The position numbers and the translations under genes are program-made. Positions 36,004-58,909 of a DNA stretch of 64,000 nucleotides are shown here, in pieces. Within the stretch, counting starts at the first letter, position 1. Each line of letters opens with the position of its first letter. The stretch comes from an uncultured bacterium (GTDB lineage Bacteria; Patescibacteriota; Minisyncoccia; Phycocordibacterales; CAIZLB01). The notes below the pieces were generated by a model. The model saw nothing but the letters and a program-made list of their open reading frames with translations, was not told the origin of the DNA and did not search any database. The stretch spans positions 29,436 through 93,435 of the forward strand of contig CAIZVZ010000006.1 of NCBI GenBank assembly GCA_903936565.1, written 5' to 3'.

Positions 36004-36297
36004 CTATTCCTCCGTCACGACTTCATATTCCCCTCCCTTGAGTTCAATCTTCCAACCCTTCAGCCAAATCCTGTTCCAGTGTCGGTAAACATCTGAATTT
36101 GGACCATGCTTCTTGGCCAGTGCCCTCAGTCCGACCTGCCTCGATATGGACAATCCGACCGTCCGGCGTACCCCGCGGAGTGACAAATAGTGAGATTCCT
36201 TGGTTATAACCCAGGTCTCCGGAATTGGTATTTTAACGCCACTCCATCCATTCAGAGGGCCTCGATTCGTGTCATTTATTACGGCAAACTTTTTCAT
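36004..36297 (-). CDS. Hypothetical 97-aa basic protein encoded in a GC-rich (about 50 percent) islet
   Basis: The ORF coincides exactly with a compositional island (35940-36330). No recognisable domain. A hairpin at 35941-35972 lies downstream. Confidence 0.35.
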   Translation of the reverse strand: MKKFAVINDTNRGPLNGWSGVKIPIPETWVITKESHYLSLRGVRRTVGLSISRQVGLRALAKKHGPNSDVYRHWNRIWLKGWKIELKGGEYEVVTEE

Positions 36298-36443
36298 GTA
36301 TTCGTCCCTAATCTAATTGTTAGCAGTTTGATCGGACAAGAAGTGTTGTACCTTTGTCCAAAATAAGAATACAATTTTGTAAAAAATAGTCAATTTTGCC
36401 AGAGCAACCGCAGATTCCAAATTGTAACAGACACAATAAATGT

Positions 36444-36863
36444 CTACGACCTAAACTCAACCTCAAATCTATACATCCCCATTCCACACATTCCTTGTAG
36501 GACACCTACGGTCGAAGTTCCTGCATTAATATCGGTCGCACCGGCCTGTGGTAGTACCTGGCTGACATTCAAACTTGGAATTCGTATTGAAGATGAACAG
36601 TCGAAAGTTCCATTAGTTTTGAATCTTATAATAGTCGACACTCCAGCTTTGGCGACACTCTTCCCCGGCTTATAACCTCCCTTAACATCGATCATAATAA
36701 TTTGCTTTCCATCAACCATGGTGACATTGGGAGACATTCCGCCAGCTTGTACATTTCCCTGTGCGCCAGTTTGTGTTTCCACTCCACCGTTCCCTAACAT
36801 GGAAAGCGTAAATGCTCCGATCACCAATACCACCGCGACTGTAATTGCTATATAAGTTTTATT
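36444..36863 (-). CDS. Secreted cupredoxin-like protein of the copper operon (Met/Cys-rich C-terminus QGMCGMGMY)
   Basis: Signal/TM MNKTYIAITVAVVLVIGAF (internal Met chosen as start), beta-rich body. The last gene of the csoR-copA operon. Confidence 0.4.
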   Translation of the reverse strand, partial: NKTYIAITVAVVLVIGAFTLSMLGNGGVETQTGAQGNVQAGGMSPNVTMVDGKQIIMIDVKGGYKPGKSVAKAGVSTIIRFKTNGTFDCSSSIRIPSLNVSQVLPQAGATDINAGTSTVGVLQGMCGMGMYRFEVEFRS

Positions 36864-36876
36864 CATAAATATTTTA

Positions 36877-37950
36877 TTAAAAATTAAAAACTGGCGAAAT
36901 AATTCCAATCACCACTAAACTGTTTATTAAATTGAAAACTGCAAACATAATTACAATGAGCCCTGCAGTTTTGAAAAACACACCCTTCTTTGCACTATTT
37001 ATAACACTAAATGAACTGAAACTGATAAGTGCGAGAACTGGTAGCGTTCCTAATGCAAATGAAAGCATTGTTAGTCCCCCTCCAAGAAAGCTCCCCGTTG
37101 ATAAGGTGTACAATTGCATTGACTGAGTAAATCCACAAGGTAGGAAGAATGTTGCAACACCCACAAGAAGTGGAGTTAATGTGTGATTTAATTTTGTCAC
37201 ACCCTGCGCATGTTTTGAAATAAATCTAGGCATTCCAATCTGCATTCTTTTGGCCCATGGAAAAACATCGAGTAGATTTATTCCCAAGACCAACATCACA
37301 AGCGCAATAATTATTCCCAATATAAAAGTAGCTGAAACATTCAAGGTAAACGCACTACCCAAAACACCAATCACTCCACCCAAAACAAAGAATGAAACTA
37401 AACGTCCTCCATGGAACATTATTTGTGGTTTTATTCTATCACCCTCTTTGGCAAAAGTAGCAGACAAGGAGAGTAGAAGTCCTCCAACCACAGCCATACA
37501 AGATGAAAGCGATGCGATAATTCCAATTACAAATGCAGTTCCATATGTTACACCACCCGATCCTACCAAATTTACAAGACCCGCTTTTTGAAGTAGCAAA
37601 AACAAAACCAAGAACCCGAGAGTAATTGGGGCGGCAATTTTGAAATCGGACCATTTGGACACGGCGGTATTATTTTCTTGACCTTCATCAGAATTATTTC
37701 CGTCGCCAACACTTTCATGAGTAGAAATTTTATATCCATGTTTCTCAACCAGTAATGAAAGCTCTCTAGCAACATCCTCCTCACTCTTATCTTTAAAATC
37801 CCCGACAACCTCAACACACCCCCCGCTTAAATCAACAACCGCCTTCTCAACTAAGGCGTGATCGTTCAATTCAGTTTCCGTCAAAAGTACACAGGCTCTG
37901 CAGTGCATACCTTGTACATAGAATTTATATTTTTTGGATTGATTATTCAT
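36877..37950 (-). CDS. HMA (heavy-metal-associated) domain fused to a multi-TM permease (TauE/SafE- or DsbD_2-like)
   Basis: N-terminal YVQGMHCRACV metal-binding MxCxxC, then about 8 TM segments with conserved Cys in TM regions (SLSSCMAVVGG, FFLPCGFTQ). Confidence 0.55.
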   Translation of the reverse strand: MNNQSKKYKFYVQGMHCRACVLLTETELNDHALVEKAVVDLSGGCVEVVGDFKDKSEEDVARELSLLVEKHGYKISTHESVGDGNNSDEGQENNTAVSKWSDFKIAAPITLGFLVLFLLLQKAGLVNLVGSGGVTYGTAFVIGIIASLSSCMAVVGGLLLSLSATFAKEGDRIKPQIMFHGGRLVSFFVLGGVIGVLGSAFTLNVSATFILGIIIALVMLVLGINLLDVFPWAKRMQIGMPRFISKHAQGVTKLNHTLTPLLVGVATFFLPCGFTQSMQLYTLSTGSFLGGGLTMLSFALGTLPVLALISFSSFSVINSAKKGVFFKTAGLIVIMFAVFNLINSLVVIGIISPVFNF

Positions 37951-37951
37951 G

Positions 37952-40246: not shown

Positions 40247-40258
40247 AGTTGATGAATA

Positions 40259-41846: not shown

Positions 41847-44066
41847 ATGCCCGAAAAACCAAAACCAATTAACCTCAAATTCACAGAATATCCACTTTCA
41901 TCAGTAATTAGAATTAATCCTGATCAGATTTCACATCTCAAAAAATTAAACCTATTCACAATCGGTGACATACTGAGGCACTACCCCATACGATATGGTG
42001 GTGCATCAGAAGCGCAATACATCAATCAATTAACAGTAGGACAAAACGCCACAGTCTATGGAAGAATTGGAAAATTAAAGACTGGAAAAAGTTTTAAAAG
42101 CCATACCGCAATGGCAGAAGGAGTTATCTCAGATGACACGGGAAATCTAAAAGTAGTTTGGCTTCATCAACCATATATCGCAAAATTAATTCAAGAAGGC
42201 AGTCTGGTAAAGGCAACAGGTAAAGTAACCAAGCGTGGCGATTATGTTGGAATGTTAAATCCAGAAATAGAATCAGTTGGTGTTATGCCAAATCAAATTG
42301 GTCACAATCTCTTTGCCGGAACAGAAGCACCAATAGAACACTTCTCTCCCGTTTATCCAGAAACAAAAGGCGTGACCTCAAAATGGATTTATCACACACT
42401 TCAAAGAATATTTAAGAATCCCTTATTTGAAACAATAGAAGATCCAATTCCGGGGGATATATTAAAAAAATATAATCTCCCCTCTCTAAAGAGTGCGTTA
42501 ATTTGGATTCACACTCCACAAAAAGAAACTGACGCTCAGGTGGCAAGAAAAAGATTTTCATTTGAAGAAGTTTTTTATATTCAAATCAAGAATCAACAAG
42601 CCAGAGCCTCCGCTCAAAAAGAAAAAGCTTACGTGATTGAGCCCTCTTCCAAGAGCTTGAAAGAATTCACAGACAGATTCCCTTTTGCAATGACTTCTTC
42701 GCAAAAAAAATCAACAGATGACATCTTGAGTGATTTCCAAAAAGGTACACCAATGTCTCGTCTCCTTGAGGGAGATGTGGGATCAGGAAAGACTGCCGTC
42801 GCTGCAACTACAGCATATGGTGTCGTGACAACAAGACCTAAGAACAAAAATTCAAAGGTGCAGGATTATGGTAATTTACAAGTCGCATACATGGCACCAA
42901 CTGAAATCCTCGCCAAACAACACTTTGAATCATTTATTCAATATTTTAAACACATGCCAATTTCTATTGGCTTCATAAGCGGAACGGGGTGTAGAAAATT
43001 TCCATCAAAGGTACAGAATCGCGGGGCGGATGGTAACAGCGGTTGGACCGATATTTCAAGATCACAATTATTAAAATGGGTAGAGAGTGGTGAAATTGCA
43101 ATCTTAATTGGAACACACGCCTTAATTCAAAAGTCCGTAAAATTCAAAGACCTAGCGTATGTCATCATCGACGAGCAGCATAGATTCGGAACCGCACAAA
43201 GACAAAAGCTTGCACGCAAACATGACATCGTCCCCCACCTCCTATCAATGACGGCAACACCGATTCCAAGAACCTTAGCACTCACTCTTTATGGTGATCT
43301 AGACCTCTCACTAATCGATCAAATGCCAACAGGAAGAAAACCTATCATTACAGAAATTATTACAGAACCAAAACGGGAAGCTACATATGAGAAAATTAGA
43401 AAGGAATTAAAAGACGGCAGACAAGTTTATGTAATTTGCCCAAGAATCGAGGAAGCTGATCCAGACAAAGAACAAGCGCTCAATGTTAAGTCAGTAGTGG
43501 AGGAAGCAAAGAGATTAAAAGAAAGTGTTTTTAAAGATTGGAATATCGATATATTACACAGCAAGATGAAGCCAAAGGAAAAGGATGCGATTATGATGCA
43601 ATTTGAAAAGAAAGAAATTGATATTCTTGTTGCCACAAGTGTTGTTGAGGTTGGAGTAAATGTTCCAAACGCAACAATAATTTTAATTGAAGGTGCTGAG
43701 CGGTTTGGATTGTCACAGCTTCATCAATTACGCGGACGTGTAATTAGAAGTAATCATCAAGCGTATTGTTATGTCCTTAGCGATAGCAAGAGCAGTAAGA
43801 CAGTTGAGCGACTTAAAGCATTGAATACCGCAAAGAACGGTTTTGAATTATCCGAAATGGATTTGAAATTGCGTGGCGCTGGGGAACTGTATGGTGGCAA
43901 GCAATGGGGTATTACAGATATCGGAATGGAAGCAATCAAAAATATAAAAATGGTAGAGGCCGCACGCAATGAAGCCCAAATTATTGTTAAAGAAGATCAA
44001 ACACTAAGCTCATTCCCTATTTTGAAAGAGATGATGGATACGAAGAGAGAAATACATTTTGAATAA
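41847..44066 (+). CDS. recG: ATP-dependent DNA helicase RecG
   Basis: N-terminal wedge/OB domain, helicase motif I GDVGSGKTAVA, DEQH box (IIDEQHRFG), motif VI QLRGRVIRS; 739 aa. Confidence 0.85.
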   Translation: MPEKPKPINLKFTEYPLSSVIRINPDQISHLKKLNLFTIGDILRHYPIRYGGASEAQYINQLTVGQNATVYGRIGKLKTGKSFKSHTAMAEGVISDDTGNLKVVWLHQPYIAKLIQEGSLVKATGKVTKRGDYVGMLNPEIESVGVMPNQIGHNLFAGTEAPIEHFSPVYPETKGVTSKWIYHTLQRIFKNPLFETIEDPIPGDILKKYNLPSLKSALIWIHTPQKETDAQVARKRFSFEEVFYIQIKNQQARASAQKEKAYVIEPSSKSLKEFTDRFPFAMTSSQKKSTDDILSDFQKGTPMSRLLEGDVGSGKTAVAATTAYGVVTTRPKNKNSKVQDYGNLQVAYMAPTEILAKQHFESFIQYFKHMPISIGFISGTGCRKFPSKVQNRGADGNSGWTDISRSQLLKWVESGEIAILIGTHALIQKSVKFKDLAYVIIDEQHRFGTAQRQKLARKHDIVPHLLSMTATPIPRTLALTLYGDLDLSLIDQMPTGRKPIITEIITEPKREATYEKIRKELKDGRQVYVICPRIEEADPDKEQALNVKSVVEEAKRLKESVFKDWNIDILHSKMKPKEKDAIMMQFEKKEIDILVATSVVEVGVNVPNATIILIEGAERFGLSQLHQLRGRVIRSNHQAYCYVLSDSKSSKTVERLKALNTAKNGFELSEMDLKLRGAGELYGGKQWGITDIGMEAIKNIKMVEAARNEAQIIVKEDQTLSSFPILKEMMDTKREIHFE

Positions 44067-44120
44067 AGCAGGAAACCGGCCCGCGCGTACGCGGACCGGT
44101 GTTTGTTTGATTCGTCTGAA

Positions 44121-44645
44121 TCAGTCCCTGATGACAATGTCTGGCTGTGGACCATCATCATCCAGAAATGCGGCTGAAGCCGTCGATCTCCTTGCCGACA
44201 GGCAGGCTGGTTGCATCGAGTACATTGTGGCGCCACGGATCATCCTTCTGGCGCGCCTTTTCCATCCGTCGAGGGCGACAAGCTTTGGGGCATCAATGAG
44301 AAAGTCCAAATCATTTTCCACATCACCTCGGTTATCAATGATCCGTCGGATCTGGATAACTGAGGGGTCTCCAATGCGACCCTCCCTAGAAAACCCGACA
44401 TCGTGGCAGATCCTTTCGTAACTTGCCTTCGATATAGGGTAATCAATCTCATTGATACGCAGGGCATAACCATAGCCCCCAAACACCCTCACTCCAGACA
44501 GCGAGCATATGAAGCTCGGCTTATCTTCTACTTTCTTTTCTGGCGGTTTACTTCTTTTCATTGTGTGCAGGTTGGTTGAATAATCAGAGATGAAAGAAAA
44601 ATGGTGACCACCACCATTCTCAGTCTGTACAACATAATGACACAT
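44121..44645 (-). CDS. Hypothetical protein in a GC-rich (about 52 percent) islet adjacent to the tRNA with the UAU anticodon
   Basis: ORF boundaries coincide with the compositional island 44060-44650; no recognisable domain. Confidence 0.35.
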   Translation of the reverse strand: MCHYVVQTENGGGHHFSFISDYSTNLHTMKRSKPPEKKVEDKPSFICSLSGVRVFGGYGYALRINEIDYPISKASYERICHDVGFSREGRIGDPSVIQIRRIIDNRGDVENDLDFLIDAPKLVALDGWKRRARRMIRGATMYSMQPACLSARRSTASAAFLDDDGPQPDIVIRD

Positions 44646-44714
44646 TCTTTTACAAAATGCAAATTAAGATTTTACTTGTGCACCCCCCCAATCGAAGAAA
44701 AAGTATTATTTCTG

Positions 44715-44787
44715 TGCGAGCACTAGGATTCGAACCTAGGACCGGTCGTGTATAAGACGACTGCTCTACCAACTGAGCTATGCTCGC
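44715..44787 (-). tRNA. tRNA with UAU anticodon (would decode AUA, Ile)
   Basis: GCGAGCATAGCTCAGTTGGTAGAGCA-GTCGT-CTTATAC-ACGAC-CGGTC-CTAGGTTCGAATCCTAG-TGCTCGC-A; U33 and A37 are in place. Confidence 0.7.
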
Positions 44788-47159: not shown

Positions 47160-47600
47160 TGTGTCCCTTAGGTGGGTATTTAGGCCGGAGCGCCAGATCC
47201 GTACGGAATTAAATCCCTACAAATTCCAAAGTCTAAATACGACGATCCAACTATAACCGAGATTGCCCAGCCGTGCACACTTGCTTTTGACGCCGTCAGC
47301 CAAGTTAACTCGATCATAGAATGACACAATTTGTCATTTGGACCGATCAAAAAAGAAGGGTTATGTGTGATCCGGCCAAGTGCCAGACACCTAACACATA
47401 TTGTCACCAGAGGAACAGGTGACAGACGCAACTAGTTCCAAAACTAGGGTAACTCGGTGCAAGTGCCACCGTAACAAATTAACCAGCGTTTAAGGTCGAC
47501 GAAGACCACACTTCTAGCCCGACTCACGACAAGGTGAGCGGGCTATCCTTTTGGCTTTTTTTCTTGTACTCACGTACACCACCCTACCACCCTACTTCTG
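47160..47600 (+). ncRNA. Unassigned candidate structured ncRNA (about 440 nt, GC about 50 percent) ending in a strong intrinsic terminator
   Basis: ORF-free GC-rich block between divergent ftsH and smpB. Hairpins include atgaca-caatt-tgtcat and tgtcacc-agaggaaca-ggtgaca. Terminal hairpin agcccgactcac-gacaag-gtgagcgggct followed by ttttggcttttttt (47550-47600). No RNase P, SRP or tmRNA consensus recognised. Confidence 0.3.
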
Positions 47601-48173: not shown

Positions 48174-48568
48174 GGGGATGACATGCTTTGACACATGACT
48201 GGATTTTTTATGTGCGTAACCGAGTGCCCGAGAATCTCGTTAAACTTCCGGAACCCTTAGATGCAAAAGCCCAAAAAGCAGTCGCTTCTCCATTCTTTGG
48301 AGTAAACGACTTTGCATTTGCAACAGCTAGAGCCTAGCTCGCTATTGCAACGTTCTTACCTACTCTTTTTGCAAGTAGGATAAGGGCGCAATAATTGCAA
48401 AATAGATTTACAGAAATCTTAGACTGTAAATTAAAACAAATAAGATCGACGACGTTGTGTTTTGATAATTTTATAGCACCGCCGTTTAAAAACAAAAAAA
48501 ATCATCTACGCTACGTAGACTCATAAAGAAACATCGTGTGCACGCGGGTTCAATTCCCGCCATCTCCA
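48174..48568 (+). ncRNA. ssrA: tmRNA (ssrA)
   Basis: 5-prime GGGGATG pairs with 3-prime CATCTCC, including a G3-U70 wobble pair. T-arm GCGGGTTCAATTCCCGC, discriminator A. Internal candidate tag frame ending at UAG 48335-48337 (...NDFAFATARA). Located immediately downstream of smpB. Confidence 0.8.
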
Positions 48569-48583
48569 CATCAATAAAAATAG

Positions 48584-48619
48584 GACCGCCGAACGAAAGT
48601 GAGGTGGTTTTATTTTTGT
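48584..48619 (+). terminator. Intrinsic terminator after tmRNA
   Basis: gaccgcc-gaacgaaagtga-ggtggtt with G-U pairs, then ttttatttttg. Confidence 0.5.
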
Positions 48620-48751
48620 TGAATAGTGGAGTATCAGCCGGGAATTGAAAGGCGGACTGAAGTTCTGCAATGAGCCGTCAGACATGACGGCGAAGCAGAA
48701 CGAAGGAGCCGGGGTCGCGCAAAAAATTGAGAAGCAATTTTTATGCGTGAC

Positions 48752-48765
48752 CAATTCCCGCCATC
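48752..48765 (+). repeat. 14-nt exact (about 20 nt imperfect) direct repeat of the tmRNA 3-prime end, 187 bp downstream of ssrA. Read as an att-site-like scar
   Basis: caattcccgccatc at 48551-48564 and again at 48752-48765. Confidence 0.55.
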
Positions 48766-48906
48766 ACGTAATTTACCTTGACACATAGGCCTGTCTGTAT
48801 TATTGTTTGCGTGAATAAAGTTCCCTGCCCCCCCCCGTTGTGTTTAGAATCGAGCCTGTGGACAAATCGCGGGCCTGCTCTAACCACAACCCCAGAATAT
48901 CAGACC

Positions 48907-49374
48907 ATGTACGTTGCATATAATCCAAAATCGTTAGTTCAACCCATAAGCGCCAAAACCGGAGTGGACGCCCTGGAAAGCATCGCTGCTTTCTTCAAAG
49001 AACTTCTCAGACTCCGTGCTGAGGGGAAGCATTCAGAAATCGAAGGTCACATCGACTTGGATAAACCCGAGTTTCGTGATGCCTGGACGAACCCCCACGG
49101 TAGCAAACTTCGACTCTTCACCCTTACACGAAATGTCGATCACGCAACTCATCTCTCCGGATGGGCATTCAGATGCTGGGCGCGACCGTATGCGAAGGTT
49201 ACGGTGGATGACCACTTCGAAACCATCGATTTGGGAGCCTTGCTGTTTGAAGTCCGTAGCGATGAATATCAAATTCTTCTACAGTGGGCCCAAAGACACT
49301 TCACGGATGACTTGTATCCATGGGAATGCAACCTTCACAGTAGAAAAAGCATCCTGTGGCTCGGAGAAGGCTAA
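48907..49374 (+). CDS. Hypothetical 155-aa protein in a GC-rich (about 52 percent) islet immediately 3-prime of ssrA and its duplicated end
   Basis: Start MYVAYNPKSL chosen (track start 48778); followed by a GC hairpin terminator. Confidence 0.4.
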   Translation: MYVAYNPKSLVQPISAKTGVDALESIAAFFKELLRLRAEGKHSEIEGHIDLDKPEFRDAWTNPHGSKLRLFTLTRNVDHATHLSGWAFRCWARPYAKVTVDDHFETIDLGALLFEVRSDEYQILLQWAQRHFTDDLYPWECNLHSRKSILWLGEG

Positions 49375-49407
49375 CAACTTCATTTCTTCATCACCCCGAA
49401 CCCGAGG

Positions 49408-49436
49408 CACCCCGCCCGCAAGGTCGGGGTGTTCTT
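49408..49436 (+). terminator. Intrinsic terminator (caccccg-cccgcaaggt-cggggtg, then ttctt)
   Basis: Seen directly; marks the right edge of the GC-rich islet. Confidence 0.5.
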
Positions 49437-49464
49437 ATAAGTAAATAATTTGGGATACCACAAA

Positions 49465-50100
49465 TTAAAATATTTCCTTCAAATCCACCAGGCCACCTAT
49501 AACCTTCCAAGCATCTTCTTCAATATGCGATCCTTTAAAAGTAATACCTCTTCCCGTCGCCTTAAACATTTCTATGTCATTATCCCCATCCCCAATACAT
49601 GCACATTCATCCAAACCAATTCCCATCTTTTCAGCAACATCCTCCAAGAGTTTAAGTTTACCAAAAGCATTATCGCCAGTATTTATTATATTCACAAGAC
49701 AATCGTTATCATCAAAAACAAAAGTACTATTTGCTTCAAATAAATCTATACCCAATTCCTCGGCAATCATGTTAACCAATATATCAATAGAACCTGATAT
49801 TAAACCTATTTTATAATCCTTGTCCTTAAGATAAGCTATAACTTCCTGTACTCCTCTACGGTAAGAATATTTACTTAAGGCGACAGTAATGTGCTGGCGA
49901 GTCGCCTTTCCACTTGCCTTATATTTCTCTAATAAAATATTGTTCCACTCGTCATAAGATATTTCTTTATTTTTATATTGATGAAATAGCACCTCGTCGT
50001 CTTCTTTGCTAATACCTAAAGCCAAATTAAGTTCATACCAGCTATTTTCTTTAATAAGGGTTTTATCTAGATCAAAACAAATTAATTTTACATCACTCAT
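49465..50100 (-). CDS. HAD-superfamily hydrolase, SerB-like (phosphoserine phosphatase family)
   Basis: Motif I FDLDKTL, motif IV GDGDNDIEM; internal Met start at 50100 chosen. Confidence 0.7.
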   Translation of the reverse strand: MSDVKLICFDLDKTLIKENSWYELNLALGISKEDDEVLFHQYKNKEISYDEWNNILLEKYKASGKATRQHITVALSKYSYRRGVQEVIAYLKDKDYKIGLISGSIDILVNMIAEELGIDLFEANSTFVFDDNDCLVNIINTGDNAFGKLKLLEDVAEKMGIGLDECACIGDGDNDIEMFKATGRGITFKGSHIEEDAWKVIGGLVDLKEIF

Positions 50101-50135
50101 CGTGTAATTAGTATACACAATCCAACAAGTAGGCA

Positions 50136-50840
50136 CTACCTCCCCCTCAACCACCCGTTCAAATCAAAAAACTTCTCCCCATCCAAAAGATCAAAAACCA
50201 ATCTCAGTGTATCATTCACAATCTTCGTCACCCCCTTGTCTTTAATAACCAAAGCAAACTTAGCCCTTGGATTAGCTAATAATAAAAAGTTTTCCGTAGA
50301 CATTATCTCCCCCGGAGCAATAAAACTATCATTAGAAAAAATCTTCAACCCCTGAGATCTTCCAATATGAGACTTGATCATATCCTTATTCAACTTATCA
50401 AAATGACCCAATGCCTTTTTATTTGAAATTCCCTTCATGACAATTCCCCTCCTTTTAAATACCCTATGTGCTTCTTTAATAAAAAGCGTGGGCAAGTTAT
50501 CAAACTCGCTTTTTGCAGCATCACTACCTTGAATAGATAATATCGTCGTTTGTTTAGGAAGATTCAAAAGCTGATTATATGCCTGCACAATTTCCTTATC
50601 CTTATAAACCCTATAATGGTTTTTATTATGATCATTTTTATAAACAGGTTGCCAGATTGACTTCCTCCCTTCAATATTTTTCTTAACCAAGCCAGAATCA
50701 GAAAGACGCCCCAGACGATATTGAATGGTAGTCCTCAGAACTCCAAGTCTCCTGGATATTTCTGAAGGATACATAGGCTCAGTACCTATAATTTTTAAAA
50801 TTTTACTATCCAAGCTATCTATTCCGATCATGATTAACAA
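50136..50840 (-). CDS. TrmB-like winged-helix transcriptional regulator (paralog A)
   Basis: N-terminal HTH LDSKILKIIGTEPMYPSEISRRLGVLRTTIQYRLGRLSDSGLV. Confidence 0.5.
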   Translation of the reverse strand: MLIMIGIDSLDSKILKIIGTEPMYPSEISRRLGVLRTTIQYRLGRLSDSGLVKKNIEGRKSIWQPVYKNDHNKNHYRVYKDKEIVQAYNQLLNLPKQTTILSIQGSDAAKSEFDNLPTLFIKEAHRVFKRRGIVMKGISNKKALGHFDKLNKDMIKSHIGRSQGLKIFSNDSFIAPGEIMSTENFLLLANPRAKFALVIKDKGVTKIVNDTLRLVFDLLDGEKFFDLNGWLRGR

Positions 50841-50956
50841 TGATACTTATTGACAAATATTTTGTCAATACAATCCATGATAAGCCAATAAATACAGTAC
50901 CATGATCATGTCTATTGATTTTCATACGATTATATACATCAAGATGATTTAATCTA

Positions 50957-52288
50957 ATGCATATGAATAACATAGCGATTACATACTTAGCTGCGTATTT
51001 GGTAATACTGGCCATTATTACTTGGCGGTCAGCAAAAAGAGAAACTCCCGCTGATTATATCAATAGCGGCAAGAACTTATCCGCAAACGATTCAACGTGG
51101 ACCACCTTCGCTTCTCTATTAACTGGCTACAATTTTGTAATAGGTGTTACATTTTCATTCTTGTATGGCTTTTGGTATTTAATGGTATTTGTCGGAGCCG
51201 GAATGGCATTTGTTGTTTTATATCTATTTTACAAGAAACACCTACTCCCTCTTCAAAGAGATCATGATCTATTTTCCATCGGAGATTATTTTGGTTTAAA
51301 GTATGGGTCGTTAAGCAAGAAACTAATTAATTTAATTTTATGCGGTGGACTTATATTATTTCTAATTCTTCAAATGTTTGTAAACACAACGCTTTTCTCA
51401 GCACTACTTCATATTGAAAAGCTGACAGCATTAATTATTACCACAGGCGTAGTCTGTATATACCTATGGTTTGGCGGGTTTAAAGCCTCAGTCAAAACAG
51501 ATATCTTTCAAGGTCTTTTAATGTTGCCGATAATTATGACAATTTTCGTTTTTCCTGTGCATTTTACATTAGGAAAAATTCCGCAGGCTTTTGACCCCTC
51601 ACAATTTTGGTTTGCCATAGGTTTAATGTTATTGCAGTTTTTGAGCCTGCTTGGACAAGCGGAAAGTTTTCAAAGAATATTTGCAAGTAGAGATGTGGAA
51701 TCTCTAAAGAAAGGTTTGGGAAGAGCATTCATTCTTCTTGCACTAGTCGCCGGATCAATCGCTTATCTTGGAATAAATTTTAAATTTTCAGGTCTAATAA
51801 GCGACCCTTCAGATTTATTTACCAAAGGAGTTCTGACTGCATTACCTTCATGGCTTGGACCATTATTAACCATTTCACTCATTGCATCTTTTATGGGAAC
51901 GATAGACTCAAGCGCTTTTGCATTCGGTGTTCTTGTCGCAAAAATGAGAGGAGCAAAAGAAAAATCAATCATAAAATCAACCAGGCTTTTTACTCTTCTC
52001 GGTATAATTGTCTCTGCAATTTCATCACTATATCTATTCTCATTCTTGTCCTCTGTGTTTGCACTAATATCATTAATATCAGTTGTGGGTGCGACGCTTG
52101 TAGTTTCAATTACACTCAGACCAAGCACATTTGAAATTAATACATTTCTAATTGTTGGTTCCGTCATTTTTATAGTTGGTTTGATTTTAAAATTCGTAAC
52201 TGACAATCCCTTAACGTCATTGATTCCAAGTGGAGCTGCCCTTTTAGCCATGTTGTTAGTTCGAGCATACGTGAGTTTTAAAAGATGA
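50957..52288 (+). CDS. Sodium:solute symporter family (SSS) transporter
   Basis: About 13 TM segments; N-terminal RSAKRETPADYINSGKNLS pattern typical of SSS. Confidence 0.6.
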   Translation: MHMNNIAITYLAAYLVILAIITWRSAKRETPADYINSGKNLSANDSTWTTFASLLTGYNFVIGVTFSFLYGFWYLMVFVGAGMAFVVLYLFYKKHLLPLQRDHDLFSIGDYFGLKYGSLSKKLINLILCGGLILFLILQMFVNTTLFSALLHIEKLTALIITTGVVCIYLWFGGFKASVKTDIFQGLLMLPIIMTIFVFPVHFTLGKIPQAFDPSQFWFAIGLMLLQFLSLLGQAESFQRIFASRDVESLKKGLGRAFILLALVAGSIAYLGINFKFSGLISDPSDLFTKGVLTALPSWLGPLLTISLIASFMGTIDSSAFAFGVLVAKMRGAKEKSIIKSTRLFTLLGIIVSAISSLYLFSFLSSVFALISLISVVGATLVVSITLRPSTFEINTFLIVGSVIFIVGLILKFVTDNPLTSLIPSGAALLAMLLVRAYVSFKR

Positions 52289-52614
52289 ATCTAGCTAGGC
52301 AGTCAGTCAAACCACGGCGCATAGTTATATTGACTTTTAGGCCTATTGATGTTATTGTATATTTAGCAAGTTCCCGATCAGGAGTTGTGTTTGGAATAAG
52401 GCCTGTGAATAAATCGTTGGCCCTATCTACAACACACACCCCTGAATTCATGAGAAATTACCAGTATGTCTTTCTAGGAATGTCGGCGCAAGCCTTCTGT
52501 ACCGCAATCTGGCTAGTGAAAGGAACCACACCAGTAAGTGTCGGCCAACAGCTATTCCTCGCAGCTTTGTTTGGCATCGTCGCCATCATCATTCGCAAAT
52601 GGAAACGGAACTAA
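52285..52614 (+). CDS. Small hypothetical membrane protein overlapping the SSS stop by 4 bp
   Basis: 109 aa, C-terminal TM helix LFLAALFGIVAIIIRKW; somewhat GC-richer than its flanks. Confidence 0.3.
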   Translation: MNLARQSVKPRRIVILTFRPIDVIVYLASSRSGVVFGIRPVNKSLALSTTHTPEFMRNYQYVFLGMSAQAFCTAIWLVKGTTPVSVGQQLFLAALFGIVAIIIRKWKRN

Positions 52615-52619
52615 CCCAA

Positions 52620-52666
52620 GACCCTCACGAGATCGACCTTCAACAGGCCTCGCGAGGGTCTTTCTC
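52620..52666. terminator. Bidirectional intrinsic terminator (gaccctcacgag ... ctcgcgagggtc)
   Basis: 12-bp inverted repeat with one G-U pair, T-run on the plus side; sits between convergent genes. Confidence 0.55.
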
Positions 52667-52683
52667 ATTTCTATATAATTTAA

Positions 52684-53796
52684 CTACTTCACCTCCACGA
52701 ACTTCCCATCCTTAATTGCCTTCAACATCAACTCCTTATACATTCCAACTCCCCTACTATCAACAGACAAACTTCCATTTGCTCCCTGATAATTATTCAA
52801 GCTTGCCAATTTATTTCTCACACAATCTTTATTTTCATATCCGCAAACGGCAATTGAATCTTTCAAGATGTTAAATGCATCGTACACGTTTGCAGATGTT
52901 AGATCTGCATCTACTCCATATTTATTTTTATATTTCAAAGCATAGTCTTGCCCTGCATCATTAGCTAATTTATCCTTAGGATAAGCATAGATAATTCCTT
53001 CAGCTAATTTATAATCCGTAATAGGCCCTTGTATAGCGTGAATACCAAATTTTGGTAGATTGTTAACACCCTGAACATTCATTTCTTTCAAAATATTATT
53101 GAAGTCTCCACCATGTGCAACAATCATTAAAGAATCAGGATTAGATTCCTTAATTTTCAAGACAGAAGTCTTAAAATCACCCAACCCCTTAACTACTGCC
53201 TCATCAGCTACAATAGTTCCTCCATTATCTTTGAAGTATTTTACAAAGTGTTTATAGTTTTCATCTTCAAACGCACCTTGCATGTGAATAATACCTACTC
53301 GTTTAAAATTCTTGGATTGCATATTTGAAGTAATGTCCTTCATTAAGTATTCAATTTCAGGAGAGAAAGTAAAATGATTTGGACCCATGTTTGCGATACG
53401 ATTAGATGGCAGACCAATAGAAATTGACATCACACCGTTATCCTCAAATAATGTCTCAGTTGAAATAGAAGCCTCATTACACATCGGCCCTATTATATAA
53501 TTTACCTTGTCCACCGTAATCAATTTTTGAACTGCACTAATTCCACTAGAACCGTTACATTTATCGTCCTCTTTAATTATCTTATAATTAGATCTTTCAC
53601 TTTGTGGCACACCCTCTAAAGCGAGGTTCAATCCATTTTGCATATAGTCACCAAATGAAGCGGCTGGACCAGAAAACGGACCCACCACGCCAATTTTTAT
53701 AACATTACTATCATTGTTGCTGTTATTATTAAAATAGACTAGCACGCCTACAATCACTATAATCGCCAAAACTATATATTTATATTGTATTTTCAT
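52684..53796 (-). CDS. Periplasmic-binding-protein type I solute-binding protein (LivJ/Peripla_BP_6-like), membrane-anchored, orphan
   Basis: TM anchor, then IKIGVVGPFSGPAASFGDYMQNGLNLAL. Confidence 0.65.
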   Translation of the reverse strand: MKIQYKYIVLAIIVIVGVLVYFNNNSNNDSNVIKIGVVGPFSGPAASFGDYMQNGLNLALEGVPQSERSNYKIIKEDDKCNGSSGISAVQKLITVDKVNYIIGPMCNEASISTETLFEDNGVMSISIGLPSNRIANMGPNHFTFSPEIEYLMKDITSNMQSKNFKRVGIIHMQGAFEDENYKHFVKYFKDNGGTIVADEAVVKGLGDFKTSVLKIKESNPDSLMIVAHGGDFNNILKEMNVQGVNNLPKFGIHAIQGPITDYKLAEGIIYAYPKDKLANDAGQDYALKYKNKYGVDADLTSANVYDAFNILKDSIAVCGYENKDCVRNKLASLNNYQGANGSLSVDSRGVGMYKELMLKAIKDGKFVEVK

Positions 53797-53926
53797 AACA
53801 ACAGAATAATATCAGGTTGTCCAGTGTTTGTCTCATGTTTATAACTAATAGTGACAAGATTATTAATACATGCTATATTATAAGGGTATTTTAATAGCTT
53901 AATGTAGTCCAAAATATGAACTTTAT

Positions 53927-54664
53927 ATGAAAATTGAAAACATACTCACCAAATACGGATTAACAGAACATGAGACACTTATATATATTTGTCTCCTTAA
54001 ACACGTTGAGGCAACCGCTTTTACGCTAGCAAAGGAAACTCATATCCCCCGGGCGACAACCTACAGAATTTTAGACTCGTTAAAAGAAATGAAAATGGTC
54101 TCTGTTTGGAAGAAGAATAACATTTCATACTTCAGTGCGGAAAGCCCCAATCGCCTACTCAAACTTTTGGATGAGAAAAAGGAGATGCTTAATTCCATAT
54201 TACCGGAGATGATGAATTTAAGGCAAATAGACAGCCTTACCCCCGCCACAAGAATATATGAAGGAAAGGAAGGCTTGAAAATTGTTTGGGACGATATATT
54301 AGATACCGCTGAGAAACAGGGGCTACGAGAAATTCATGCGATCTCAGGTCTCGATGTTTTGAAATATCTTCCAAGATACTTTCCGGAATGGTTAAAAAGA
54401 AGAGAAAAACTCGGTGTCTTCAGCTATGTGATCACAAAAGAGACCAATCCATCAACAGATTCCACCCTAGTAAAAAATCGCCTCAGAGAAACTAGAGTGA
54501 TGCCGATGGGGCTCATGGGTAATGGAACAATAGATATTTATGGAAACAAGGTTGCCTTCTTCTCCCTAAAGGACGGCCAAATATATTCTATAATATTGGA
54601 GTCCCCTTCTATTGCCGAGTTCCTTAGAAATTTCTTTATTTCAACTTGGGGCTTACTGAAATAA
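53927..54664 (+). CDS. TrmB-family transcriptional regulator (paralog B)
   Basis: ILTKYGLTEHETLIYICLLKHVEATAFTLAKETHIPRATTYRILDSLKEMKMV. Confidence 0.6.
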   Translation: MKIENILTKYGLTEHETLIYICLLKHVEATAFTLAKETHIPRATTYRILDSLKEMKMVSVWKKNNISYFSAESPNRLLKLLDEKKEMLNSILPEMMNLRQIDSLTPATRIYEGKEGLKIVWDDILDTAEKQGLREIHAISGLDVLKYLPRYFPEWLKRREKLGVFSYVITKETNPSTDSTLVKNRLRETRVMPMGLMGNGTIDIYGNKVAFFSLKDGQIYSIILESPSIAEFLRNFFISTWGLLK

Positions 54665-54724
54665 ATTTCAGAGAATAATATCCCAACAAAAAAACCACCC
54701 ATGTGGTTTTTTGTTTCCTATCTT

Positions 54725-55444
54725 CTACTTTTTAACCGCAATCATTACCGAATCCATCCATTGTCTATAGACCGTAGAAATACTTTCGTAATTATTTTGT
54801 ATTAACAGCCTAGATTGTTCAGATTCAGTAAATCTAACCTTTTCATCCTCAGCATAGTGCTTAATCCATTCCTCCTTGACGTCAGATCTTCCAATCTGAA
54901 CGAAAGCCTCAAATGTATTTATGGTATTCTCTATATATTCCTTCTGCAAAGGACCATCATCAACGGTACATTTGTCGCCATTCACAAAGATACCTCCTTT
55001 TTTTGTAACTCTAGCAATCTCTTTGAATAGTTCGTTTCTCTTCTCTATACTGAAGTTGTGTATTACATATCCTGAGAAGACCACATCGAAGTAATTGTCA
55101 TCAATGGATTTAAGATAATCCATTATCTCTGATTCTATAAAATCTATTTGCGATATATTCTGAAACCTTTTCTTTAAAGCCTCGAGCATTTTAGTTTCAT
55201 TATCAACTGCATAAATTTTATAATTATCCATTTTCACATCATCACAGGCTTGCAGTACGAAAGCTGTAGTTATTCCTGATCCAATACCAATTTCTAACAT
55301 TCGCACCTCTTCAGCTGATTTGATATTTTTAACTATAGTGTTAGCCACAGCTAGTTCTAAATCATCATAATACCAGAGTGCTTTCTTTAATAGGTCATAT
55401 TCCTCTCCACCTAACAGCCCTGAAAATCTTTGATCATTGTTCAT
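54725..55444 (-). CDS. Class I SAM-dependent methyltransferase
   Basis: Motif I LEIGIGSGITT, acidic post-I residue; 239 aa. Confidence 0.65.
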   Translation of the reverse strand: MNNDQRFSGLLGGEEYDLLKKALWYYDDLELAVANTIVKNIKSAEEVRMLEIGIGSGITTAFVLQACDDVKMDNYKIYAVDNETKMLEALKKRFQNISQIDFIESEIMDYLKSIDDNYFDVVFSGYVIHNFSIEKRNELFKEIARVTKKGGIFVNGDKCTVDDGPLQKEYIENTINTFEAFVQIGRSDVKEEWIKHYAEDEKVRFTESEQSRLLIQNNYESISTVYRQWMDSVMIAVKK

Positions 55445-55450
55445 GTTGTT

Positions 55451-56554
55451 TTATTTAATCTTATAAGGCTTATTGTCCTTTATTCCCATCAGTGCAAACT
55501 CTTTTGTAAATCCTCCCTTACCGTCTGATTTAAGATCTCCAGATTGACCCTTGTACTCAGTTATTGTGTGTATGTATTCCTGAATCTTTGTAGTATCTAA
55601 TCCGTTTGTGTTCTTAATCCCCTGAGCTATTAGCATGACTGAATCGTACGCTGTATCTGCACCACCCTCAATTTCTATTCCATACTCCTTTTTATATCTC
55701 TCTTCGAAATCTTTATTTGGAGTTAGGCCACTTAGGTATATCCAGCCATCACAAGACCCTTCACAAGTTGAGATAGTCTGTTTATCCATCGTCACCCCGT
55801 ATACGGGTAGTTTGATACCAATTTCCCTCATCTGTCTTCCGTATACAGAAGTTATGCTATACCCATCGGATGTTATGGCGATAGCATCAACTCCGGGAGT
55901 ATTCTTTAGTTTCAGTAAATCAGTTCTTACATCGGTTGAACTAACTAGTGGTTCATTTATGAAAATCGCATGACCGCCAAGTTGTTCTATTTTATTCTTG
56001 ATTGTAATAGTTTGATCTTTTACCCAAGGATCCTGTGCACCTAGGATGGCAATATTTTTATGACCATCCTTTATCATCATTTCTGCCAACTTCTCCGATA
56101 GTATATAGTCATGAGTATATGTATTGAAGATGTATGGGCTAGCTTCATTAAAAGCTGCGACACCCAGAGTTGGTGATATAACGACTGTATCCTTCACCAA
56201 GTCTTTTATGGCTAAACCATTTTTTGTCCAAGTTGGACCTATAATAAACTTTATACCTTCAGCATCCGTCAGTTTTCTGAAGGCGGTTACCGTTTTTGCT
56301 GGATCTCCTTGATCGTCTTCAACAACAGCTTCTAGTTTCTTTCCAAGAAGTCCTCCTTGATTGTTTATGTCCTTAATTGCTAAGTTCATACCGTTTACGG
56401 TAGCCTCACCCAAGGACGCCCCGTCACCGGACATTATCAAGACAGCTCCTATTTTAATGATCTTTTGATCATTACCGCTTTTCACATTTACGATACCAAT
56501 TATTAATAATATTGTTATAAGTATTGCTACTATGGTTGTTTTTTTGTTTTTCAT
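55451..56554 (-). CDS. Periplasmic-binding-protein type I solute-binding protein (second paralog), orphan
   Basis: TM anchor, then IKIGAVLIMSGDGASLGEATVNGMNLAIKDIN. Confidence 0.65.
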   Translation of the reverse strand: MKNKKTTIVAILITILLIIGIVNVKSGNDQKIIKIGAVLIMSGDGASLGEATVNGMNLAIKDINNQGGLLGKKLEAVVEDDQGDPAKTVTAFRKLTDAEGIKFIIGPTWTKNGLAIKDLVKDTVVISPTLGVAAFNEASPYIFNTYTHDYILSEKLAEMMIKDGHKNIAILGAQDPWVKDQTITIKNKIEQLGGHAIFINEPLVSSTDVRTDLLKLKNTPGVDAIAITSDGYSITSVYGRQMREIGIKLPVYGVTMDKQTISTCEGSCDGWIYLSGLTPNKDFEERYKKEYGIEIEGGADTAYDSVMLIAQGIKNTNGLDTTKIQEYIHTITEYKGQSGDLKSDGKGGFTKEFALMGIKDNKPYKIK

Positions 56555-56689
56555 AGTACTAATATCGTATATTTTTGACAGAGTTATTCAAAAGTGCTCT
56601 GAATTTCTTATCGAAAATATCCCATTTAGCCCTTATTTACAGTGCTATATATCTGTTGACAATACTCCGACAAAATGTATAATTAAACC

Positions 56690-57454
56690 ATGCAAATTTC
56701 AAAACTAAAAGAACTAGGATTTACAGACAAAGAAGTAGAGGTGTATGTTACCCTCTTGGAACAGGGGCGTCTAAACCCCTCCAGAATCGCCCTATCTAAC
56801 GGCATCAAAAGACCAACTGTATACGGAATTCTTAAGGAGCTTATAAAAAAGGGGGTAGTAGTAGAAGAAACCAGACAAGGTAAGCGGCTCTTCTCTGCCC
56901 TACCAGTCAAAAGTCTTGGCGATATAATTCTAAAAGAAGAAAGAGAGTTGCAATACAAGAAAACGTTGGTAAATCAAGCTATTGAGGAACTTGAATCTCT
57001 AAGTCTTAAAACAAAAAAGTCTATCCCCCGAATAACATATATATATGAAGAAAACATAGAGAACTTTTTATACAAACAAGCTTCAGCTTGGAACGAAAGT
57101 ATCTTGCAAAGAGATGGCTCATGGTGGGGATTCCAAGATCCAGAGGTTCTAAAAAAATATGGAGAATGGATTGATTGGTATTGGAAAGAAGAAAACACCC
57201 CCAAACAGGTGGTATTAAGACTTCTAACAAGTCAGTCGGAGTTTGAAAAAAGGATGGCAGCCAGAGGCTACAACAGAAGATTGATTAAGTTCTGGAATGG
57301 AGGACAAGATATTGATACTACGACTTGGGTAATAGGTGACTATGTAATCATTGTAGCCACAGGTCAGAAACCATATTATCTCGTCCAAATACACGATGAG
57401 GTGTTGGCAAAAAACATGAGAGAGATGTTTAAATATATATGGGAGACTCAATAG
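56690..57454 (+). CDS. TrmB-family transcriptional regulator (paralog C)
   Basis: LKELGFTDKEVEVYVTLLEQGRLNPSRIALSNGIKRPTVYGILKELIKKGVV. Confidence 0.6.
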   Translation: MQISKLKELGFTDKEVEVYVTLLEQGRLNPSRIALSNGIKRPTVYGILKELIKKGVVVEETRQGKRLFSALPVKSLGDIILKEERELQYKKTLVNQAIEELESLSLKTKKSIPRITYIYEENIENFLYKQASAWNESILQRDGSWWGFQDPEVLKKYGEWIDWYWKEENTPKQVVLRLLTSQSEFEKRMAARGYNRRLIKFWNGGQDIDTTTWVIGDYVIIVATGQKPYYLVQIHDEVLAKNMREMFKYIWETQ

Positions 57455-57601
57455 AGCTTTATTTATTGTCCACGCAGGAGATATCGAATGCCTAATTGCG
57501 ATGTATTGACAGGTACACAAAACGTGTTAATCTATCACCAGAGTTCCAAAAAACAACAAAACACAGGCACTCTTCTAATTCTGTAACCCCAAAACACGCA
57601 C

Positions 57602-58249
57602 ATGAGCAAAGAACTGACTGAATTCGAATTAATGGTTGCTACACAACTGAAGCAACTGGATAGACACCGAGACACAACCGAAGCTGCGGCAAGACAGACC
57701 ATTGTTGGCCAACAACGGTGGGGACAATGGGAATCGTTGGCGGAAATCTCTGCCGACACCATTCTTCAGTTGTCCGCCGAAGCCGGCGGGACCATGGTTG
57801 ATATGGTCTTGTGGGCTGACGAAAATGGCTACAAGGGAATCCTGGTGGACGTTGCCACCACCCTAGCTACTGGTGTCAGACCAATCGCCACCGCAAAATC
57901 AACCGAGATTGGTGAAGTCACAGGAAGTGTGCCTTTGGTAAAAACCCCAGAAGCAGCACTGCCTGAGTTCCAAATCAATGACGGCTACCTAGCAAAGGCA
58001 TTCCAGTTATCAACAACAGCCTCTAGTCTGGCGCAGCAAGGGCGGTTGTATGAGTCTCTCAACTGCTTCAGGACAAGTCTCACATACTTGTTCCTGGCCA
58101 AGGTACCAACCAACATCGAGAAGAGGAAGACGTGGGCCGTTGAAACCATCACGGAAGTGGACTTGATCCTTGCTGGGCTCATCGCCCCCTGTTTCCAGAG
58201 GGCACGCGCAGCGGGAAAACAGCTCATTCTCGTCACTGGGAAGTCCTGA
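57602..58249 (+). CDS. Hypothetical 215-aa protein in a GC-rich (about 52 percent) islet
   Basis: Compositional island 57480-58860. Its own hairpin terminator lies at 58305-58335 (ccccacg...cgtgggg). Confidence 0.4.
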   Translation: MSKELTEFELMVATQLKQLDRHRDTTEAAARQTIVGQQRWGQWESLAEISADTILQLSAEAGGTMVDMVLWADENGYKGILVDVATTLATGVRPIATAKSTEIGEVTGSVPLVKTPEAALPEFQINDGYLAKAFQLSTTASSLAQQGRLYESLNCFRTSLTYLFLAKVPTNIEKRKTWAVETITEVDLILAGLIAPCFQRARAAGKQLILVTGKS

Positions 58250-58538
58250 AAAATACCCACGTCAAGGCACCACTTCCAAACACCTTACCCCCGCATCCTA
58301 TGAGTCCCCCACGAACTCACGGACGTGGGGGATTTCATTTAACCTTAGAAATTTATCCACTTCGACCTAATAGTTATTGAAGTGGTAATTATATCAGACT
58401 TGACTTAAACAACATATAGTGTTATTATATGGAAAGCTAAGTTCCCATTGTGAGGTATGGTTTGATTTAGGATTGTCGTCGCAAATCAAGGCATTCGGCC
58501 TTCGATCGTGACCGCAAACTGAACCAAACCATTACCAA

Positions 58539-58784
58539 ATGAAAAACGCACGACACTTCGTATTCGAACTAAACTCTGCCGGCTCCTTTATGTTTGAGGG
58601 CATCGGTGACGATAAAGAAATCGACCGTGGGCAGCAGGACTACGTGAGAAGATTGGTCGAAGCCGCTCAGCTAGCGGTGGCAGCCTCGGGTAAACCCGTG
58701 GATCACTTCGAGAATGTCATCAGGCTCGCCGAAATTGGCCATATCATCAACTCGCTTTCACCACCAGCAGCAAAGACACCTTGA
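58539..58784 (+). CDS. Hypothetical 81-aa protein in the same GC-rich islet
   Basis: Followed by a hairpin terminator at 58815-58850 (ggacctt...aaggtcc, ttttcattt). Confidence 0.35.
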   Translation: MKNARHFVFELNSAGSFMFEGIGDDKEIDRGQQDYVRRLVEAAQLAVAASGKPVDHFENVIRLAEIGHIINSLSPPAAKTP

Positions 58785-58909
58785 CCCCCCCCGACCTCCG
58801 TGAACTGGACCTTCAACAGTCCTTCTCGCGAAGGTCCTTTTCATTTGAATAATTTATTCTATCATCCTCCAATCATTAGCAATAAACTCCATGATATAAT
58901 ATCCCTACT

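Follow-up and report, generated by a model that had tools for sequence, protein, structure and literature searches.

GC-rich orphan-gene islets in a patescibacterial chromosome segment as candidate moron-like cassettes with shared promoter, leader and terminator modules

The 64,000-nucleotide stretch of contig CAIZVZ010000006.1 (assembly GCA_903936565.1) that was analysed here, called the window, comes from an uncultured member of the Patescibacteriota and contains short GC-rich islets in AT-rich surroundings. With moderate confidence, we interpret these islets as autonomous, moron-like expression cassettes that are exchangeable and stem from a lineage-restricted gene pool. The main points of interest are a modular architecture in which the open reading frame (ORF) appears to be swapped, and the GC-rich orphan pool itself. 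The window represents a segment of a cellular chromosome, with recG, ftsH, smpB, the transfer-messenger RNA (tmRNA) gene, infC-rpmI-rplT and a copper-resistance operon. The Patescibacteria are cell-attached organisms with tiny genomes, and, to our knowledge, very little has been established about the turnover of their accessory genes. Retrieval by SmpB yielded four close relatives, all bins from stratified lakes, with SmpB identities of 83-99%, and the nearest named genomes, metagenome-assembled genomes of Candidatus Harrisonbacteria and Saccharibacteria, reached 48-49%; by these matches a Patescibacteria-type organism is likely.

The GC content was 0.377 for the whole window and 0.361 for the background outside the islets. 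Islets were delimited by sliding-window GC in 200-nt windows, for which the binomial standard deviation is about 0.034 at p = 0.377, and their peaks were found 5-6 standard deviations above the window mean. Four of them had been described in an initial annotation of this DNA:

Islet 1, GC span 35921-36337, mean 0.477, 200-nt peak 0.565
Islet 2, GC span 43992-44579, mean 0.490, 200-nt peak 0.585
Islet 3, GC span 48502-49463, mean 0.488, 200-nt peak 0.54
Islet 4, GC span 57553-58895, mean 0.489, 200-nt peak 0.58

With means of 0.48-0.49 and peaks of 0.54-0.585 against 0.361, the islets are real. The contrast of about 50% to about 33% GC given in that annotation holds, although 33% is slightly low for the background. 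Its description of one or two domain-less proteins per islet was borne out as well (one ORF in each of islets 1 to 3, two in islet 4), as was that of own GC-rich terminators, a hairpin with a T run being present 3' of each listed ORF. A position beside a tRNA or tmRNA gene was seen for two of the four islets (tRNA-Ile(TAT) at 44714-44787, tmRNA at 48174-48571). Further islets were detected at 52363-52737, 47239-47622 and 60526-61072. Across the islets, mean GC was 46-50% and the 200-nt peaks reached 0.52-0.59. Two other GC peaks, at 4978-5337 and 17388-17708, were rejected as islets; both fall within conserved genes, presumably those of an amidase (GatA) and a PilB-type ATPase, respectively.

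The jump in composition is the sole point in favour of a chimeric assembly in which reads of a higher-GC organism were joined to this chromosome, an explanation to which we give practically no weight. Exact-protein look-ups led to 10 independently assembled loci, which represent eight samples and two assembly pipelines. Over 6.6-16.4 kb, nine of them matched the window at 100% identity, and the tenth had a single mismatch; jointly they cover all islet borders between 41.6 and 64 kb. The 215-aa protein of islet 4 is on record in 34 contigs, and analogous units occupy the same sites in relatives. Misassembly, the first concern raised by the initial annotation, was thereby excluded at the level of assembled contigs.

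The organization of the islets is best seen downstream of the tmRNA gene, where the following features were identified:

48174-48571, forward strand, tmRNA gene (Rfam RF00023, 118 bits), anchor of the island
48572-58885, flexible, tmRNA-anchored island of about 10.3 kb with cassettes i3, i52, i4a and i4b among AT-rich genes
48778-49436, forward strand, cassette i3, with its promoter at 48778-48806 (TTGACA-17-TATTGT)
48818-48825, forward strand, motif AAGTTCCC of i3
48837-48890, forward strand, hairpin leader of i3
48907-49374, forward strand, ORF of i3, 155 aa
49389-49436, forward strand, terminator of i3, type A
52330-52670, forward strand, cassette i52, absent from the initial annotation, with its promoter at 52330-52358
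52368-52375, forward strand, motif AAGTTCCC of i52
52384-52447, forward strand, hairpin leader of i52
52450-52614, forward strand, ORF of i52, 54 aa, hydrophobic
52635-52670, forward strand, terminator of i52, type B
57506-58340, forward strand, cassette i4a, with a promoter-like TTGACA-16-TAATCT at 57506-57533
57542-57547, forward strand, AGTTCC of i4a, followed by a C/A-rich leader
57602-58249, forward strand, ORF of i4a, 215 aa, GC at third codon positions (GC3) 0.57
58306-58340, forward strand, terminator hairpin of i4a
58400-58846, forward strand, cassette i4b, with its promoter at 58400-58428 (TTGACT-17-TATTAT, upstream TG)
58439-58446, forward strand, motif AAGTTCCC of i4b
58539-58784, forward strand, ORF of i4b, 81 aa, with a run of eight C after it
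58808-58846, forward strand, terminator of i4b, type B

The AT-rich genes of the island encode a HAD protein, a MarR-like protein, an SSF transporter, two periplasmic-binding-protein/TrmB pairs and a methyltransferase.

At the 5' end, the cassettes follow a common order of promoter, AGTTC(C/T) placed 8-12 nt past the -10 box, a 55-nt hairpin that may be present or absent, a C/A-rich stretch and the ATG. AGTTC(C/T) was found in all eight tmRNA-island cassettes, the four of the window and those of the related loci L008, L009 and L012 and cassette X of L082 (L082-X); the combination of promoter and AGTTCC occurred three times in the window, with zero expected. Homology between i3 and i52 covers the promoter and a 90-nt leader, which is 77% identical over 64 nt, and i4b has the promoter and AAGTTCCC in common with both. 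Two of the 21 predicted pairs in the leader hairpin show compensatory changes. The i3-type leader also precedes unrelated ORFs in L009 and L012. Leader length is about 60-95 nt in i3, i52, i4a and i4b, and no Shine-Dalgarno sequence was seen in the cassette leaders, with a possible weak AGGGA at islet 1.

The 3' module consists of a C-rich motif resembling CACCCCGAC, followed by a terminator of type A (i3 in the window, L008, L012) or type B (i52, i4b, L012/L082-X), the latter being 82% identical between i52 and i4b. The modules occur in several combinations: leader with type A, leader with type B, a short leader with type A, and another leader with type B. Terminator A neighbours the HAD gene in the window and ParE/Phd in L008. 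These differing contexts, together with the mixed 5' and 3' combinations, indicate that the modules belong to the cassettes and not to the sites. The proteins, by contrast, showed no relationship in an all-versus-all BLASTP comparison apart from the positional homologs of islet 2, so that the shared family of small accessory proteins proposed in the initial annotation gives way to shared regulatory DNA. The shared leader is a candidate for a regulon and for a new cis-regulatory RNA motif.

The promoter, leader and terminator modules were found only in this narrow lineage. In the Joint Genome Institute (JGI) metagenomes the leader pattern was matched once, by L012, and viral contigs gave no match; 198 kb of related loci, scanned with a covariance model of the leader, yielded no additional copy. 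The terminator A pattern likewise had no match in viral contigs. The 49 viral-contig matches of the terminator B pattern were discarded as chance hits since all lay in high-GC coding DNA without a hairpin. The modules are missing from the more remote relatives of the 186-aa neighbour gene, which have no islets of a comparable kind either.

Some further details of the cassettes were recorded. Homopolymeric C runs of 7-9 nt are present at cassette edges (48829-48837 in the i3 leader, 58785-58792, 44686-44692, and near 6440 in L007); in i4b and in the L007 homolog of islet 2 they directly follow the stop codon. They could be slippage or recombination signals. Core-type genes at 56656-56690 and 58893-58910 appear leaderless: a consensus -10 box lies 6-11 nt upstream of the ATG and, as in the cassettes, a Shine-Dalgarno sequence is missing. 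The GC-rich cassettes, by contrast, have leaders of 60-95 nt. The 54-aa peptide of i52 is labelled 'glucose uptake protein GlcU' by JGI, for which Pfam gives no support. Its mate in a 90% cluster, a 413-aa arginine-deiminase-like protein, was unrelated to it on inspection and was set aside as a probable clustering artefact.

A clean case of exchange came from the comparison with L012/L082. Here the window is 89.6% identical over the MarR-SSF genes, 85% over promoter and leader and 87% over terminator A, but from about 15 nt 5' of the ATG to about 17 nt 3' of the stop codon the sequences are unrelated, and the 155-aa ORF of i3 is replaced by an unrelated ORF of 125 aa. In L006 and L008, similarity to the window ends at the last base of the tmRNA gene. 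In L008 it picks up again at 58886, the block 48572-58885 being absent there, and the 10.3-kb block is absent from L009 as well. Instead, the tmRNA gene is followed by GC-rich ORFs of 191 aa (L009) and 118 aa (L008), with either a gene that we take from its N-terminus to be prepilin-like or ParE/Phd lying 3' of them. The tmRNA-proximal slot is thus filled by differing ORFs in the window, L008, L009 and L012. L082 carries patches only of the window island, with MarR-SSF as in the window and ParE/Phd as in L008, the latter pair being 93.5% identical between the two relatives. Turnover and exchange are indicated by the occupation of the islet sites by other DNA in close relatives; this part of the repeated acquisition suggested by the initial annotation is upheld, and the part that concerns a higher-GC origin is not.

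Two more GC-rich units of L082 were noted. A 359-aa orphan of about 0.5 GC (7135-8214, reverse strand) follows SSF at the place of i52 in the window, and cassette X (3795-4126, forward strand) carries the AAGTTCCC leader and terminator B.

The units thus occupy strain-variable hot spots, the tmRNA-anchored 10-kb island, which holds most of the cassettes, and the RecG/tRNA-Ile gap. The cassettes of the island draw on a limited, lineage-specific repertoire of exchangeable end modules. We propose that these would serve as portable homology arms: after uptake or transfer of DNA, homologous recombination between modules could swap the ORF or move the whole cassette. Site-specific integration directed by tRNA or tmRNA genes would import island DNA and leave att-like repeats behind. 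As judged from neighbours only, the cassettes probably act in conflicts or interactions specific to the strain: in relatives, AbiEii and ParE/Phd toxin-antitoxin modules are found in these hot spots.

Codon composition was analysed for nine mutually unrelated cassette ORFs, six from the window and three from relatives, and for 18 core genes. The second codon position had the lowest GC (GC2) in all nine (chance about (1/3)^9), GC3 was 0.51-0.58 compared to 0.27-0.42 in core genes, and total GC was 0.47-0.52 compared to 0.33-0.42. Each ORF occupies its unit from the leader through to the terminator. The cassette ORFs therefore look like real, translated genes. A composition more AT-rich than that of the host genome is usual for ORFans and acquired genes; the cassette ORFs are about 13-15 points more GC-rich than their surroundings, and their GC3 is about 0.2 higher. 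The uniform GC3 of about 0.55 suggests that they were not shaped by the AT-biased regime of the chromosome and points to a separate gene pool with fast turnover.

None of the cassette proteins, those of relatives included, had a significant match in Pfam, PHROGs, PADLOC or NCBIfam. For the 215-aa protein of i4a, no homolog was found among 5.77 billion proteins, and its single-sequence AlphaFold2 model was uninformative (pLDDT 35). Searches of phage and plasmid sequences with i3 and i4a (tblastn) gave no matches. These results bear on the proposal that each islet is a separate, recent piece of foreign cargo from a higher-GC donor, for instance the host of an episymbiont. Such an origin would account for a GC3 of about 0.55 beside about 0.33 in core genes and for the location at sites that vary between strains, adjacent to tRNA and tmRNA genes and marked by att-like repeats. 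However, no donor homolog was found for the 215-aa protein and the family of islet 2 is limited to six members, which makes a common higher-GC host an improbable source, and the lack of phage or plasmid matches is likewise at odds with it. The attached promoters, leaders and terminators are of normal AT content, were found only in this lineage and are common to several cassettes, which implies that the units were assembled or maintained inside this lineage. Moreover, islet 2 is syntenic in all relatives. Altogether we consider foreign cargo quite unlikely, and the higher-GC partner or host invoked in the initial annotation is not supported.

Islets 1 and 2 lie outside the tmRNA-anchored island and comprise the following features:

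35938-36393, reverse strand, islet 1 unit with promoter-like site, leader, ORF and terminator
36366-36393, reverse strand, promoter-like TTGACT-16-TATTCT of islet 1, with a leader of about 70 nt after it
36004-36297, reverse strand, ORF of islet 1, 97 aa, GC 0.49, GC3 0.55
about 35938-35979, reverse strand, terminator hairpin of islet 1
44066-44645, reverse strand, islet 2 unit, starting 69 bp from the 3' end of tRNA-Ile
44121-44561, reverse strand, ORF of islet 2, 146 aa from the likelier start (174 aa from 44645 in public gene calls)
44066-44100, terminator of islet 2, a bidirectional hairpin common to recG
44597-44621, conserved hairpin upstream of islet 2
44714-44787, reverse strand, tRNA-Ile with anticodon TAT (ARAGORN and Rfam), bordering the islet-2 hot spot

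Islet 1 stands alone, built like the cassettes but without their shared modules. It lies between a gene that, from its translation, we take to be mscL and the copper-resistance operon. No domain was found in its protein (Pfam, PHROGs, PADLOC, NCBIfam), and the loci compared between relatives end short of its position at 36 kb. As to the neighbour of islet 2, a tRNA-Ile with anticodon TAT (UAU) is uncommon in bacteria, where AUA is usually read by a lysidine-modified CAU tRNA.

Islet 2 is a fast-evolving gene family that holds its position. Its homologs are 15-41% identical at the protein level, compared to about 80-87% (DNA) for the neighbour genes, and conserved motifs are present in the family alignment. 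An exhaustive HMMER search of 1.84 billion representatives returned six members, five of them relatives of the query; one match that was traced, P0017, is the positional homolog in L009. A large-database search with the protein itself recovered only the query. The AlphaFold2 model from the six-sequence alignment had a pLDDT of 71, with 77-90 in most of the core, and no significant structural neighbour was found for it. In L006 and L008, the gap between RecG and tRNA-Ile additionally carries an AbiEii/DUF6922 pair.

GC3 of islet-2 homologs was 0.53-0.55 in three lineages that share 23-41% amino acid identity and 0.35 in two others, a pattern that would fit either recurrent replacement out of a GC-rich pool or a process acting locally to keep GC high, for example biased gene conversion. 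One rival explanation is that all islets are resident, vertically inherited, lineage-specific and fast-evolving genes, without any import, whose GC is kept high locally by GC-biased gene conversion at recombination hot spots or by selection for stable mRNA structure. Besides the position and GC3 of the islet-2 homologs, the fold energies speak for this: relative to shuffled sequences, cassette transcripts gave z scores of -1.4 to -4.8 (i4a, -4.8 for the transcript and -3.3 for the ORF alone) compared to -1.2 to +0.5 for core gene segments. The ORFs of the window and L012, however, share no similarity at 90% flank identity, which excludes point mutation as the cause; a single terminator is found in two contexts, and relatives lack the 10-kb block. 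Residence throughout is therefore unlikely in our estimation, while retaining an appreciable probability.

Two GC-rich units of the region contain no ATG ORF:

47160-47565, forward strand, candidate structured RNA between ftsH and smpB, with promoter and terminator hairpin
60478-60950, forward strand, candidate structured RNA of about 470 nt upstream of infC, GC up to 0.595

The first unit folds with z = -4.7; over the 270 nt at its 5' end, conservation in L006-L008 is about 70%. The second has a promoter (TTGACA-16-TAGTAT) and a terminator, folds with z = -4.4 and is homologous in patches, UUCG-type hairpins among them, to the corresponding site of L008 (14841-15457). In Rfam searches at E<=1 over 35.5-62 kb, only tmRNA and tRNA were significant, the other hit listed being at chance level within recG; at E<=10, no credible match appeared in 47.05-47.65 and 60.35-61.06 kb. 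Both units are probably undescribed structured RNAs.

By extension, the ORF-bearing islets might themselves be structured non-coding RNAs, which stand out as GC-rich within AT-rich genomes, and their ORFs might have arisen accidentally from a low density of stop codons. The strong folding of these two units and of the i4a transcript, and the missing Shine-Dalgarno sequences before the ORFs (save for the possible AGGGA of islet 1), would fit. At least two core genes in the window, however, also lack a Shine-Dalgarno sequence and look leaderless, no islet had an Rfam match at E<=1, and every ORF fills its unit. An open frame of 215 codons at 52% GC has a calculated chance of about 1e-4 per frame, the GC2 minimum recurs in all nine unrelated ORFs, and the islet-2 family combines protein-level conservation with a confidently predicted fold. 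This makes a non-coding nature very improbable.

A number of observations weigh against the cassette interpretation. That each unit stands under its own promoter and terminator is evidence at the sequence level, and promoter-like sites were not enriched in the region overall (63 found, 51 expected). The shared leader and terminator modules were not found in islets 1 and 2, and diverged homologs of islet 2 are present in the RecG/tRNA-Ile gap of all four relatives, the conservation that the initial annotation had named as contrary to its proposal. Only one clean same-slot ORF swap was seen, that between the window and L012/L082, the rest being module mosaicism, and the putative homologous recombination step is read from breakpoints only. 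No integrase, recombinase or transfer gene was present among the Pfam-annotated genes at 41.6-68 kb, positions 1-33 kb being unscanned, and an rve-type gene was seen only in the relative L082. The large-database orphan tests cover the 215-aa and islet-2 proteins only. Finally, the source of the ORFs and the cause of their high GC are left unexplained by the cassette model.

Repeats of RNA-gene ends were seen at the tmRNA gene, where they enclose a small insert:

48572-48766, forward strand, mini-insert i3a, consisting of the tmRNA terminator and a strongly folding element of about 130 nt

Direct repeats of the tmRNA 3' end are found at 48553-48566 and 48753-48766 (14 nt; a perfect 19 nt in L009). 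The 190-bp insert is missing in L008. Between the window and L009 it is 96% identical, compared to about 80% in the flanks, and the few differences are all in loops. The element of about 130 nt (48634-48766, forward strand, in the window; 4579-4709 in L009) has a closing stem in which GCCGGGAATTG is paired with the second of the two tmRNA-end repeats, CAATTCCCGCC. Element and terminator together fold with z = -10.1; the element could be a small RNA or the relic of an att site. A repeat derived from tmRNA or tRNA-Ile was also sought at the far end of the 10-kb block (about 58.9 kb) and near islet 2 and was not found.

Elsewhere in the window, tRNA-Ser(GCT) (28266-28445, reverse strand) has a purine-rich insert of 133 bp behind it, beyond which 21-23 nt of the tRNA 3' end are repeated exactly; the layout is att-like as at the tmRNA gene, with no cargo gene. 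At 32918-33141 (forward strand), ARAGORN reported a tRNA-Ser with anticodon ACT that Rfam did not report at its gathering threshold; its 3' end CTCCGCAA is repeated twice within 230 nt, around mini-hairpins of the GCGAAGC type. The next genes, at 33977-35358, encode NADAR and Bro-N domain proteins, a hint of a decayed mobile element. A group I intron was detected at 2193-2406 (Rfam, 56.7 bits; region about 2135-2430, reverse strand). It appears to interrupt a tRNA gene missed by ARAGORN, with the tRNA-like halves GCGGGGGAG...CTCAA and TCTGGTGCAATTCCAGACTCCGCA on its two sides.

If the cassette interpretation holds, the lineage keeps ready-made expression frames of promoter, leader and terminator that take up unrelated small genes. 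Once confirmed, this would constitute a simple 'plug-and-play' route for trying new genes in a streamlined genome and a tractable place for asking where orphan genes originate, the GC-rich composition marking a gene pool whose reservoir remains unseen in billions of sequenced proteins.

Among known systems, phage morons (the concept of Hendrix and Juhala) have their own transcriptional control and deviant GC and lie between genes that are adjacent in relatives (PMC2920897). The cassettes resemble them in being single genes with, at the sequence level, their own promoter-like site and terminator, in a base composition that departs from that of the neighbours, in hot spots that hold different units per genome (islet 2 excepted), and in toxin-antitoxin and abortive-infection modules as alternative occupants. 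Unlike morons, they sit in a cellular chromosome (RecG, FtsH, SmpB, tmRNA, IF3, L35, L20) and have no phage matches; they share interchangeable leaders and terminators, and their ORFs lack homologs elsewhere.

Islands anchored at tRNA or tmRNA genes, including the tycheposons of Prochlorococcus (bioRxiv 10.1101/2020.12.28.424599), offer a second parallel: in a streamlined genome rich in AT, a variable island lies at the 3' end of a tmRNA or tRNA gene, that 3' end is partially repeated, and the content is a patchwork among strains. They differ in that no integrase or mobility gene was found in the island studied here, that the repeat bounds the 190-bp insert only and not the 10-kb block, and that each GC-rich unit is a one-gene cassette whose regulatory ends recur in others. 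As in the case of putative mobile promoters ('Promoter propagation in prokaryotes', PMC3488235), homologous upstream regions precede non-homologous genes (i3 and i52, partly i4b); in the cassettes, however, what is shared goes beyond the promoter to a structured 5' leader and to terminators, so that a whole transcription frame is reused.

Integron cassettes are likewise compact single ORFs, mostly without known function, with hairpin-forming 3' ends, and in both systems equivalent slots hold unrelated ORFs. The cassettes described here, unlike those of integrons, each have their own promoter-like site and are scattered instead of forming one array. No attC cores (RYYYAAC...GTTRRRY) were seen by eye, without an attC model, in the 3' modules, which read CACCCCGA..GGGGTGTTCTT and GACCTTCAACAG..GGTCTTT; IntI and attI were not seen either, and no tyrosine recombinase was present among the genes called at 41.6-68 kb. 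With the cores missing and the promoters own, an integron was rejected. There is a slim chance that the conserved hairpins of leader and terminator, the latter together with the C-rich motif, are recombination sites of an undescribed, integron-like cassette exchange in Patescibacteria, in which a recombinase or retroelement encoded elsewhere would load the tmRNA-side slot with unrelated GC-rich ORFs from a pool made or stored off the chromosome. Finally, the proteins share with ORFans their short length, lack of domains, restriction to one narrow lineage and location in variable regions, and depart from the usual ORFans in being GC-rich rather than AT-rich. Seen against these systems, moron-like cassettes in a tRNA/tmRNA-linked flexible island are an unusual form of ordinary genomic-island turnover.

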